Positions 18,843 to 22,644 of a DNA stretch of 64,000 nucleotides are shown here, one piece after another. The position numbers and the translations under genes are program-made. The DNA lies in the IMG/VR virus record IMGVR_UViG_2767802123_000001, positions 31,727 through 95,726 of that record; one strand, written 5' to 3'. The DNA is from a virus (lineage: Duplodnaviria; Caudoviricetes). The notes under the pieces are model-generated. The model was not told where the DNA came from, made no database searches, and worked only from the letters and a program-made list of their open reading frames with translations. How positions within the stretch are numbered: the stretch's first letter is position 1; every line of letters begins with the position of its first letter.

Positions 18843-19322
18843 TCAGTGGCTGCGCTCGGCGGTCCACTGCTCGCGACGGCGGCGCAACTCGTCCTTGGCC
18901 GACTCCAGCCATGCGGCCTCGGCCTCGGCGCTGCCCAGGTCGGTGGTCAGCATGACCCGGCTGAAGACCCGGGTGTCCTCGAACGTCGGCGGGACGCGGC
19001 CGGCCAGGGCCTCGCGGGCGGCCTGCGCCTTGGCCGGGTCCGGCTCGGCCGGTCGCAGCTCGGGGCTGTTGCGGCTGGTAACGTCGCCCGGCTCCAGCAG
19101 CGGGACCGAGCCGTCGGTGGCCTTGTCGTACCAGTGGCTGGACGGTTCGCCGGTGACGTCGTCGTCTGCGATGAGCAGGGGCACGGCGTCCAGGCTCACC
19201 GGGTCCACGTAATAGGCGACCAGCGTGAAGTGGTCGTTCTCATCGACGAAGCGTGTACCGAGCGGCTGCCGGTCAGCGAACGGATACGGGCCGTCCTCGG
19301 TGATGGGCCTGGGCGCGGTCAT
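18843..19322 (-). CDS. Hypothetical protein
   Basis: Operator 19350-19365 and leader upstream. Confidence 0.65.
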   Translation of the reverse strand: MTAPRPITEDGPYPFADRQPLGTRFVDENDHFTLVAYYVDPVSLDAVPLLIADDDVTGEPSSHWYDKATDGSVPLLEPGDVTSRNSPELRPAEPDPAKAQAAREALAGRVPPTFEDTRVFSRVMLTTDLGSAEAEAAWLESAKDELRRRREQWTAERSH

Positions 19323-19392
19323 CTGACTCTCCTCGTTCCGTGGTCACTATGAATTAACTAAACCATAGCCCGTGTGCCCGCACAACCCCGCG

Positions 19393-21387
19393 TCACCCGA
19401 TCGTGCGGGCCGCCGTGGCGAGACCCTTGGACGACGTCGTGCCGGTCATCGTCGGCTTCACGATCCGCTGGTGCCAGGCCGGCCACACCATCGCGTCCAG
19501 CCGGTCCGGTGACCAGTCCAGCTCGTCGTACCAGGTGCACATCTGGTCCTCCAGCTCCGGGAATTCACCCACCATGTGCCACCGGCCCTGCTCGGACAGG
19601 GCCGATACCGGCTCCGCGCGCACCTTCTTCCCCCGCGTCGCGCGCACGGTCTTGATGGGGATGCGTACGCCCATCGCGTCGGCGGCGGCCCGAATCGTGT
19701 TGACGGCCATGTCCCCGCCGAAGTTGACCTCTACGCAGATGTCGTCCGCGTCGTAGTCGACGGCTGCCTGAACTGCGCGCCGGCCCCACCCGTCCGGGGA
19801 CAGGTGGCACGAGCGGTCGGCGAGGACATGGCCGTGGGCGAGCTGCGCCGGGCGGCCGTCGGACCGGACATGCTCCCGCATCGCCTTGCCCACGACGACA
19901 ATGCCTTGTTCGCCCCGGCCGCCCGAGGGGTCCACGCCGACGGAAATCCGTGCAAGGTCTGGAAGATCGGCTGGGCGCAGCCGGTGGGCGTCGATCACCG
20001 CGCGGGTCCACAGCGCGTTCTCGTCCTGGTCGATGATCTCGGCGTGCAGCTCCTGGCGGCCGATCTGCGTGCTGCCGTAGGCGTCCTCCAGCGCGGCCTT
20101 GATGTCCTCGGGCAGGTGCGGGTTGTCGTACATCGACGCCCGGGTGCGCACCACGTTCTCGACCCCGCCGGACGCGAGTTTCTTGATCAGCGCCCGGGGC
20201 TTCGGCGTGGTGGAAGCCACCCAGTGCGGCCGGGGGCCGGTGCGCAGACCGAAACGCATCTGGTCCCACGTGTCGTCCAGGTACCGCCAGGCCGCCAACT
20301 CCTCCAGCCACGAGAGGCAGTTGGAGACGAGCAGGTCACCCGCGAAGAACTCGTGATCGTGCTCAACCGTCAGGTCGTACACGCGCGCGGCGCGACTGAT
20401 ACGCGAGGACCGAAGTGCACCGGCGCGAACAGGCGCGGGTCGGCTTACGGACTTGGCACTCAAACGTGTCGCCGCACACGCAGCACACCCGTTCCTCCCG
20501 TGCTCGTGACGCATCCGCACGGCACTTCGGAGAGCAGTACCGCGCTGCGACCGTGCCCCGGGACTGGAAGGAGGCCCCGCAGCGCTCACACTCGAAACTT
20601 CGGTAGACCGCGCGGGCCCACTTTGTCTGGCCGCCCCGGCTGCGCTCCTCGGGGGTGAGATTACCCCCTCGCTTGCTCCCGTCTTGTTCCATGTGAGAAC
20701 ACTATCAAGTGGCCCGACGAGTAAAGCGGGCTTCCAGCCGTCGGCCGTCGCTACCTTGTGATCCGGGGTGAGCCACGTGAACCCCGCGCCGTGGTCGTAG
20801 CGCACCACGTCCTTCACACCGTTGTCCCAGACCTCCAGTACGGTGCGCAGTCCGTTGCGGGTCCACACGCGGTCCCCGGGCCGGACGGTCTCGATGTGCC
20901 GCTCCCCGTGCTCGGTGCGCACCAGCGTGCCCTCAGCCACGCACCTGTTACCGCCGGACCGCAGGCGCTCGACGCTGCCAGGGCTGTCGGCGCCGAACAG
21001 CTTCGCCTCCGAGCCGTTGGGCCAGCGGATGACCGTGCCGCCCTGGACGGTCATCATCCGCGCCTCGGGGCTGTGCACCCGGAGCCCGGAGGGACCGGCG
21101 TAGCAGGACGTCGCCGCGTCGCCGAGGGTCGGCGCGATGATGCCTATCCAGTGCGGGGTGGGGCCGGGCAGACACGGCGGGCCCATGACGTGCTCGTGGA
21201 CGTACCGTGCGCAGGCGTCCGTCTTGCCGGCGCCACGGCCGGCGAGGAGCAACCAGCCGTACCAGTCGCCCTCAGGCGGGACCTGGTGGGGCAGTGGAGT
21301 CCAGCGCGGTTCGGACAGCGTGCGCGCGTGCATCAGCAGACGTTCGGCCGCCGCGCGGCTCAGCATCCGGTCCACCATGGAGGTCAT
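19393..21387 (-). CDS. Terminase large subunit, intein-containing (start uncertain: 21378/21387)
   Basis: Walker A GRGAGKT, Walker B WLEE, VGVDPS nuclease motif, SPDRLDA. Confidence 0.9.
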   Translation of the reverse strand: MTSMVDRMLSRAAAERLLMHARTLSEPRWTPLPHQVPPEGDWYGWLLLAGRGAGKTDACARYVHEHVMGPPCLPGPTPHWIGIIAPTLGDAATSCYAGPSGLRVHSPEARMMTVQGGTVIRWPNGSEAKLFGADSPGSVERLRSGGNRCVAEGTLVRTEHGERHIETVRPGDRVWTRNGLRTVLEVWDNGVKDVVRYDHGAGFTWLTPDHKVATADGWKPALLVGPLDSVLTWNKTGASEGVISPPRSAAGAARQSGPARSTEVSSVSAAGPPSSPGARSQRGTALRSAVRMRHEHGRNGCAACAATRLSAKSVSRPAPVRAGALRSSRISRAARVYDLTVEHDHEFFAGDLLVSNCLSWLEELAAWRYLDDTWDQMRFGLRTGPRPHWVASTTPKPRALIKKLASGGVENVVRTRASMYDNPHLPEDIKAALEDAYGSTQIGRQELHAEIIDQDENALWTRAVIDAHRLRPADLPDLARISVGVDPSGGRGEQGIVVVGKAMREHVRSDGRPAQLAHGHVLADRSCHLSPDGWGRRAVQAAVDYDADDICVEVNFGGDMAVNTIRAAADAMGVRIPIKTVRATRGKKVRAEPVSALSEQGRWHMVGEFPELEDQMCTWYDELDWSPDRLDAMVWPAWHQRIVKPTMTGTTSSKGLATAARTIG
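20320..20943 (-). mobile_element. Intein (208 aa) in the terminase
   Basis: Starts CVAEGTLV, block B TPDH, ends VYDLTVEHDHEFFAGDLLVSN followed by Cys. Confidence 0.9.
20363..20692 (-). CDS. Nested out-of-frame zinc-finger ORF inside the intein
   Basis: Two CxxC...CSxxC units (CERCG..YCSPKC; CCVCG..ACSRRC). Confidence 0.65.
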   Translation of the reverse strand: MEQDGSKRGGNLTPEERSRGGQTKWARAVYRSFECERCGASFQSRGTVAARYCSPKCRADASRAREERVCCVCGDTFECQVRKPTRACSRRCTSVLAYQSRRARVRPDG

Positions 21388-21537
21388 TGTCGGTGGAGCT
21401 GCGGCCGTTGCTTTCCGGAGCGCCACGGAGCCCGTGCCAACTGGTGATCGGCACGGGCTCCGTGGTTGCGGACTACGGGGTAAGGCGGTCCCCGCTCCGG
21501 TCCTTGGCGCCGGCCCGCGCGGCCGTCTGCGGGGCGC

Positions 21538-22644
<1,107 letters not shown>

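Follow-up and report, generated by a model that had tools for sequence, protein, structure and literature searches.

Inside the intein of a phage terminase large subunit gene (TerL) we found a second gene, read in another frame of the same strand, whose truncated product looks like a maintained zinc-ribbon protein without a nuclease rather than the plain relic of a homing endonuclease. The DNA that we analysed (hereafter the window) is the final 64 kb of a 95,726-bp contig with a GC content of 69% (IMG/VR record IMGVR_UViG_2767802123_000001). On its minus strand, a 208-amino-acid (aa) intein at 20320..20943 contains an open reading frame (ORF) of 109 aa at 20363..20692, offset by +2 relative to TerL. 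Judging from the sequence, and with a probability of roughly 0.68, this nested gene is still translated, after the in-frame loss of an HNH core, into a small zinc-dependent binding protein that would be unable to cut.

The nested open reading frame

The nested ORF starts with the ATG at 20690–20692 and ends with the stop at 20363–20365, all on the minus strand. Its codons 2–17 (20642..20689) form the scar region of a deletion, as judged from a DNA alignment with the related loci L006, L007, L003 and L004 and from protein alignments. Further along the ORF lie two four-cysteine units. Zinc ribbon 1 (C35xxC38...C53SxxC57; 20522..20590) evolves fast, with a nucleotide distance of ~0.3 among all lineages, and zinc ribbon 2 (C70xxC73...C88SxxC92; 20417..20485) is near-invariant, its second half overlapping the C-terminal strands of the intein's HINT fold. 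A frame plot of G+C content at third codon positions (GC3) is at or above 0.9 in the TerL frame except at ~20766–20436, where it falls to ~0.6 while the +2 frame reaches 0.7–0.87; because GC3 switches to the +2 frame, the coding signature in the centre of the intein belongs to the nested frame.

Compared with six HNH_3 proteins of 172–182 aa, the nested ORF is 58–73% identical over 85–99% of its length (E 1e-25 to 1e-37), and it aligns solely with their C-terminal half. Its matches in PHROGs are likewise to the C-terminal parts of HNH endonuclease families (phrog_1271 and phrog_15471). Pfam gives no HNH match, the catalytic HNH region having been deleted, and the protein is thus a derivative of HNH_3 (PF13392) and not a member by catalytic criteria. 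We found no second copy of the nested gene elsewhere in its own genome, and no HNH or HNH_3 gene on the contig. Pfam has no model for the zinc ribbons, NCBIfam has none for either of the two proteins, and a search of the ESM Atlas led to small zinc-finger clusters of the YacG, MYND and FCS types and nothing further.

A first-pass annotation of this DNA, made without database searches, had described an intein of the form C...SN/C that lacks the penultimate His, a low-complexity linker rich in S, A and R, and an alternative-frame ORF with two CxxC...CSxxC units and no visible HNH core. Our analysis bears out each of these descriptions, including the exact boundaries of the intein and the Ser at residue 207, and adds that the linker is predicted to be disordered and that the HNH region is deleted relative to full-length relatives.

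Complete nuclease genes in related inteins

At least 12 distinct loci, drawn from IMG/VR, JGI metagenomes and Logan, carry a whole HNH_3 gene in the same intein, inserted at one and the same point of TerL. The first-pass annotation had suggested looking for such relatives and had offered, as one reading, that the window's ORF is the remnant of an alternate-frame homing endonuclease; the full-length genes now found, which share frame, start and intein with it in every related locus examined, agree with that reading. The offset is +2 in every one of these loci, and the TerL frame is open throughout. The nested genes start at an ATG or GTG within the Thr/Ser-Trp codons with which the N-terminal splicing part closes, and the TerL-frame read across them is a string rich in T, R, S, A, G and C.

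The full-length nested proteins score 48–55 bits against HNH_3 (cut-off 24.8). When one of them was modelled, VIA-align gave as the best match of its HNH core I-HmuI of Bacillus phage SPO1 (PDB 1U3E; Z 7.6, root-mean-square deviation [rmsd] 2.7 Å over 74 residues); a Foldseek search with the whole model returned no significant PDB match. HNH_3 and Endonuclease VII both belong to the His-Me finger group. Pfam reported HNH_3 alone for the nested nucleases, with no Endonuclease_7 match at E ≤0.1.

The layout recurs beyond this site. Four GenBank phage records – Tetrasphaera phage TJE1, Rhodobacteraceae phage LS06-2018-MD07, Acinetobacter phage Highwayman and gut phage MT838676 – have ORFs with HNH_3 and two ribbons at +2 inside TerL inteins at a different insertion site; the nested HNH-in-TerL-intein arrangement is not confined to actinophages. 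Homologues of the HNH/zinc-ribbon protein also lie under features annotated as terL or "hint domain protein" in phiCDHM19, phi CD119, Vibrio phages 1.245.O and 1.238.A/B and Brochothrix phage BL3; in these Clostridium, Vibrio and Brochothrix phages the matches probably represent more instances of the layout among phages of Firmicutes and Vibrio.

A profile search placed 10,014 representatives in the HNH/zinc-ribbon family at E ≤1e-3. Among the best 150 of these 10,014 matches none exceeded 514 aa, and so far as these go there were no in-frame fusions. Free-standing members adjoin terminase or portal genes in other phages. Two scans of GTDB species-representative genomes for the nuclease returned nothing, no close copy turned up in 60 relatives of the host, and the exact 18-nt junction pattern had no match in IMG/VR.

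Loss of the nuclease core and the alleles at the site

Against the full-length inteins, which measure 274–279 aa (293 aa in the more distant L036), the window intein is missing 70 codons (a net 210 nt, in frame). The loss spans nested codon 2 to the ERG...GGxxxW segment and takes away the whole HNH motif, and the scar region has no confident alignment to the full-length genes. A 25-nt "island" within the deletion is ~44% identical to full-length genes; we do not claim two separate deletions from it.

A truncated nested ORF is also present in L040 (TerL P0158), a 95,646-bp contig from another sample. The 208-aa inteins of the two align without a gap, so the deletion is shared. In L040 the +2 ORF, 105 aa long, is intact and retains 10 of 10 cysteines, and the window and L040 form a clade (support 0.96). 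Given the shared deletion and the clade, all differences between the two post-date the loss of the nuclease.

Other alleles complete a series at this one TerL site: empty (P0160), full gene, two truncations and mini-inteins. The second truncation, in L052, is independent: from a phage of ~50% GC, its 179-aa intein has a +2 ORF of 75 aa in which ribbon 1 is half kept and ribbon 2 complete. The mini-inteins, in P0162 and P0251, are ~120–127 aa long. P0162, whose mini-intein is ~127 aa, has a called N-terminus that resembles the end of another intein, one sitting in the P-loop, and its upstream neighbour on the opposite strand has HNH_3 and HTH matches. Two sister phages with an empty terL site, G061 and G062 (CheckV 100% complete), have no homologue of the nested gene anywhere, and in a sister phage with the full intein the nested copy is the only one. 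Because the complete empty-site sisters have no homologue, the nuclease is a dispensable passenger of the intein, as a homing endonuclease should be, and not a packaging factor. What speaks for its mobility is presence/absence polymorphism among close phages; we saw no evidence of recent horizontal transfer, the identities of extein and intein largely co-varying.

Selection on the truncated open reading frame

We compared the truncated ORFs of the window and L040 codon by codon. By the NG86 method the nested frame has dN 0.159 and dS 0.653, a dN/dS ratio (omega) of 0.24, from 34 synonymous and 34 non-synonymous differences; dS in the exteins of the same pair is 0.49–0.67. Substitutions at nested-frame codon positions 1, 2 and 3 number 15, 18 and 35. 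As a null, the observed substitutions were re-placed by permutation on sites of the same base with the TerL frame held open. Under it, 34 or more synonymous differences arose with P = 5e-5, all cysteines were kept with P = 0.0016, and the ORF stayed open with P = 0.067. The signal is found in sub-regions as well: omega is 0.21 (P = 0.0002) for codons 1–80, which lie outside the intein fold, 0.17 (P = 0.005) for the new N-terminal 25 codons alone, and 0.21 for ribbon 1. A maximum-likelihood codon model gave omega 0.18–0.23 for the nested frame (likelihood-ratio test against omega = 1, p ~1e-6), and for the same pair 2.7 in the TerL frame and 1.1 in the third frame. Three-point branch estimates of the window against full-length genes (omega 0.4–0.67) were superseded by the L040 comparison.

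Selection by frame across the family

Across the whole HNH region of the full-length genes, the HNH frame has an omega of 0.30, as against 1.26 for the TerL frame and 1.32 for the third. Read in the TerL frame, the inteins of the relatives have an omega of 0.18 in the N-terminal splicing part, 1.33 in the centre and 0.05 in the C-terminal splicing part. The purifying selection in both frames that is the mark of an overprinted pair is thus absent from most of the overlap, where TerL-frame omega is at least 1.3; conservation in both frames is confined to the last ~20 nested codons and the nested ATG. This is not a classical overprinted pair, because one frame codes and the other is merely readable and then discarded by splicing.

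The open TerL frame through the nested gene is nevertheless not due to chance. Among 30 ordinary high-GC3 genes of the window, the frame equivalent to TerL is open in 0.7% of 180-codon stretches, and three free-standing relatives are closed in that frame. In two low-GC phages with the same layout, synonymous shuffles of the nested gene keep the TerL frame open with P = 0.0006 and 0.0034. The TerL frame is kept free of stops, and only that.

These results bear on the first-pass annotation's proposals. Frame-specific dN/dS, which it had recommended, separates the HNH frame clearly from the TerL frame. It had regarded stops in the alternative frame and an unconserved cysteine pattern among homologous inteins as evidence that no nested gene exists; the homologous inteins are instead stop-free in that frame, and the eight zinc-ribbon cysteines are invariant. 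Each of the two alternatives that it offered proves right in part: the remnant, as described above, and the separate DNA-binding protein, in that the ORF, at omega ~0.2 against L040, behaves as a separate zinc-ribbon protein still under selection.

The terminase gene and its inteins

The TerL gene (19393..21426, minus strand; Pfam Terminase_6N, Terminase_6C and Hint_2) is in the ORF list as a 677-aa precursor that starts at the GTG at 21426; with the ATG at 21378 as its start, the precursor is 661 aa long. Gene callers and homologues place the start at the ATG, the gene-caller product P0156 being 661 aa. Spliced, the product would be 469 or 453 aa; intein-less homologues are 448–456 aa. The intein is of the class-1 type and occupies TerL residues 162–369, between GGNR and CLSWLEE. 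It has the class signature, namely Cys1, the block B motif T59-P-D-H62 and the ending ...LLVSN with N208 followed by the +1 Cys, and these residues are invariant in eight relatives. The penultimate His of block G, usual in inteins and not obligatory, is replaced by Ser207 in the window intein and in all relatives.

GGNR-CL(S/V)WLEE runs uninterrupted in intein-less TerLs of Streptomyces phages mu1/6 and OnionKnight (42–46% identity) and in the metagenomic allele P0160, a 456-aa TerL with 94% identity in the best BLASTP alignment, which spans the C-extein. Because these alleles are contiguous at the junction, the insertion is precise and the +1 Cys native. The junction GGNR/CLSWLEE, with its hydrophobic run ending in EE, plausibly puts the intein just before Walker B.

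The N-terminal splicing (HINT) part comprises intein residues 1–85 (20689..20943, minus strand), and its last codons, Thr-Trp (ACA TGG), hold the nested ATG. An AlphaFold (AF2) model of the intein has per-residue confidence (pLDDT) scores of 87–96 for residues 1–88 (likewise 87–96 within the N-terminal part) and 84–96 for residues 170–208, and below 50 for residues 89–151, the S/A/R-rich centre that is predicted to be disordered. The ordered part matches the Mtu RecA mini-intein in Foldseek, with a TM score of 0.81–0.82, an rmsd of ~2 Å and E 1e-7. The low-complexity linker in the intein frame (~residues 89–165; 20449..20679, minus strand) has a TerL-frame omega of 1.33 in the family and 1.5–2.7 against L040; it is a by-product of the nested gene read in the wrong frame. 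The C-terminal splicing part (~residues 170–208; 20320..20436, minus strand) has strands from residue 172, and its omega of 0.05 was measured over the last 23 codons. At its beginning, ~20 codons coincide with the end of the nested ORF and are truly dual-coding, with columns invariant in both frames. With an essential host gene and an omega of 0.05–0.18 on the splicing parts, the intein is presumably splicing-competent.

Automatic gene calls split the terminases of L003, L004, L005 and L036, so that the HNH gene and a 330–354-aa C-terminal "terminase" are called and the N-extein with the N-part of the intein is left uncalled. Because gene callers split these terminases, such inteins are invisible in annotations. 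Among other TerL relatives, P0172 (998 aa) and P0182 (1106 aa, with LAGLIDADG_3), at 53–54% identity, have far larger insertions that include Hint/Vint and LAGLIDADG domains, so the same TerL family also hosts canonical inteins. The 691-aa relative P0266 has an empty GGNR|CISWLEE site and a different intein near its C-terminus (...EDQLC|V...VHN|CTWYPELDW), whose low-complexity centre, rich in G, T, S and P, could be another out-of-frame endonuclease gene. A second, smaller anomaly in the window's frame plot lies in the TerL C-extein at ~19930–20050 (minus strand), where GC3 is 0.67–0.77 in the TerL frame and 0.83–0.87 in frame +1; it falls around the variable stretch that separates the ATPase and nuclease parts of TerL. 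Related complete phage genomes are 92.7–95.7 kb long, close to the length of the 95,726-bp contig, and some have direct terminal repeats.

Expression of the nested gene

If the nested protein is made, it would have to be initiated independently, possibly from a leaderless message. A TAGTGT hexamer (20699..20704, minus strand) of the TANNNT, -10-like kind lies 6 nt upstream of the nested ATG and is a candidate internal signal, and TANNNT occurs at the same spacing upstream of the nested start in 7 of 11 loci. TerL-frame GC3 sinks over the 20 codons that lead up to the nested start in 9 of 9 loci (in the window from 0.91 to 0.60), and the window and L040 have an identical 19-nt stretch that closes with the ATG. 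Both the hexamer and the GC3 signal are confounded by conserved intein residues encoded in the same stretch. They fit a candidate internal signal for a leaderless message, as has been proposed for the ShiLan element discussed below. A scan of 19300–21600 with E. coli-type consensus sequences found no terminator, and no promoter; because of this negative scan, the case for an internal promoter comes down to the TANNNT hexamer and the GC3 dip.

Proposed history and alternative explanations

We propose that the centre of the intein once held a complete HNH_3-type homing endonuclease gene of ~180 codons, read from the same strand in frame +2 (frame 3). Where relatives are intact, the TerL precursor would be translated straight through and the disordered, stop-free linker removed by protein splicing, while the endonuclease would be made separately from the ATG or GTG in the Thr-Trp codons that end the N-terminal splicing domain. 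It is built of an I-HmuI-like HNH core and then two FCS/YacG-like zinc ribbons. The net 210-nt in-frame deletion in the window phage took the HNH core and left the start codon and both ribbons, with a short new N-terminus before them. Since the deletion the truncated gene, which is common to a second phage of ~95.6 kb, has apparently been under purifying selection in its own frame. Because of this post-deletion selection, the truncated gene is most likely still translated and its product engaged in zinc-dependent binding.

Several points weigh against a protein that is still made and used. The selection test compares one pair, and the truncated form is present in two sequences only. Neither a Shine-Dalgarno sequence before the nested ATG nor a consensus promoter was found. 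The zinc ribbons gave weak structural matches with VIA-align (FCS finger Z 2.5, YacG Z 2.1), the phage has no HNH partner, and its close relatives do without the whole element. An intact ORF is by itself no proof of function because both of its ends are pinned – the start in essential intein codons, the last ~20 codons by their overlap with the HINT strands – and only indels of 3n survive; the independently truncated 75-aa ORF of L052 is intact too. In ribbon 1, moreover, the distance between the window and L040 (0.33) equals that of each to full-length alleles (0.29–0.33), and because of this gene conversion from functional alleles could have imported variation that selection had already filtered.

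These points bear most directly on the explanation that the ORF is a plain decaying relic, functionless since the loss of the core. Its low omega would then come from recombination with functional alleles or from scant data, and it would be open only by virtue of its pinned start, its overlapping end and the restriction to 3n indels. The graded series of alleles at the same site, which can be read as decay, would suit such a history, as would the star-like ribbon-1 distances, the sister phages that lack the element, and the L052 ORF, which is intact without having been put to any selection test. Set against it are the omega of 0.18–0.24 in the ORF's own frame (p ~1e-6) beside 1.1–2.7 in the other two, the presence of that signal in each sub-region, including the N-terminus that arose with the deletion and the codons outside the fold, and the neutral probabilities of keeping all cysteines (0.0016) and an open frame (0.067). 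Nor do the data contain a full-length allele close enough to have been the donor of ribbon 1 in the window or in L040. We hold a relic to be rather unlikely.

Two further explanations dispense with a separate gene product or with the gene itself. Programmed -1 ribosomal frameshifting could join the zinc ribbons to the intein frame as a fusion of N-extein, intein N-part and zinc ribbons; the nested frame is indeed -1 relative to TerL, and the lack of a Shine-Dalgarno sequence before the ATG speaks for it. Yet all loci have an ATG or GTG at this one position, the first residue of free-standing relatives corresponds to it, and nested-frame stops lie 4–5 codons upstream in the window (TGA TAG), L011 and L013, which leaves no room for a slippery site and makes frameshifting highly improbable. 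That the ORF is open by chance in DNA of 69% GC, where long spurious ORFs abound, or is an in-frame endonuclease domain displaced by sequencing errors, is refuted: the ORF starts and stops on codons of its own, its homologues (E 1e-25 to 1e-37) have invariant cysteines, GC3 switches to its frame, and the identical frame relation recurs in independent assemblies from many samples and in GenBank phages.

Within the reading that we prefer, a nuclease-less gene that is still translated, a more specific version is tentative. The zinc-ribbon protein may have been co-opted, that is, expressed internally (possibly from a leaderless message) to bind DNA without cutting it. One possible role would be to occupy the region of the terL homing site, or a related site, and so shield the genome from active relatives of the ancestor; another would be the regulation of late or packaging genes. 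Any benefit might fall to the phage or to the intein.

Relation to known systems

Out-of-frame and antisense endonuclease genes in inteins have been described by Gosselin, Arsenault & Gogarten (bioRxiv 10.1101/2025.01.02.630785), among them an endonuclease VII-like (IPR004211) gene in "frame 3" of actinophage inteins, with TerL among the hosts. The authors propose invasion by a free-standing gene and predict rapid decay once homing stops, with relics still to be sought. The present inteins, in the window and in all relatives, share with theirs a nuclease gene that lies between the splicing blocks and is read from the same strand in frame 3, under an open host frame; the host there, too, is often TerL, and the intein-frame read has no recognisable structure. 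They appear to differ in the nuclease, here HNH_3/I-HmuI-like with two zinc ribbons, and they belong to another intein lineage: a tblastn search of GenBank phages with the intein and the nuclease found none of the preprint's phages. The window copy further departs from the predicted decay, having lost its nuclease core while apparently remaining under selection.

A 2026 preprint reports an out-of-frame endonuclease in a cyanobacterial dnaX intein. As presented there, the endonuclease ORF likewise overlaps the intein in another frame; dnaX is a cellular host gene, and both the intein and the nuclease differ from ours. Closer in its expression is the "hidden" out-of-frame HNH gene in a DNA methylase of mycobacteriophage ShiLan (Arsenault et al., Genes 2025, PMC11855218), which also sits in an open host frame, has no detectable ribosome-binding site and is proposed to be initiated leaderless. 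The ShiLan insertion has no splicing domains and is retained in the host protein, whereas here the wrong-frame read would leave with the intein. Fractured genes, in which a free-standing endonuclease gene lies between the halves of a split intein (Dassa et al., NAR 2009, PMC2677866), resemble the present case in having the endonuclease gene between two intein parts; there the host gene is in two ORFs joined by trans-splicing, unlike the one continuous ORF that here avoids stops.

Where I-HmuI is the nearest structural match to the relatives' core, their C-terminal DNA-binding part differs from it in consisting of two zinc ribbons, and in the window protein nothing of the matched region is left. 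Some homing endonucleases encoded in introns have been kept for a second job, with demonstrated functions, as in the LAGLIDADG maturases and in I-TevI, which acts as an autorepressor. The window protein would be like these in being retained for binding nucleic acid and not for cleaving it, a function that its omega would suggest. The out-of-frame architecture as such was therefore already known from preprints of 2025–2026; the part that is apparently new is a nuclease-less derivative under selection.

Implications

Inteins with out-of-frame endonuclease genes have been taken as snapshots of free-standing homing endonuclease genes in the act of colonising inteins. The TerL site adds the other end of that story, leading at one well-sampled position from an empty allele through the full gene and its truncations to mini-inteins. 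There is also a practical side, in that gene callers split or miss such terminase genes. The truncation in the window departs from the drift expected under the homing-cycle model, its zinc-ribbon ORF being under purifying selection in two diverged phages. Should co-option prove true, this would be the first domesticated remnant of a homing endonuclease whose gene lies within an intein in another frame. Provided that the selection is real, what survives of a selfish nuclease gene can be a binding protein, useful or self-preserving, with its frame hidden in the disposable linker of another protein.

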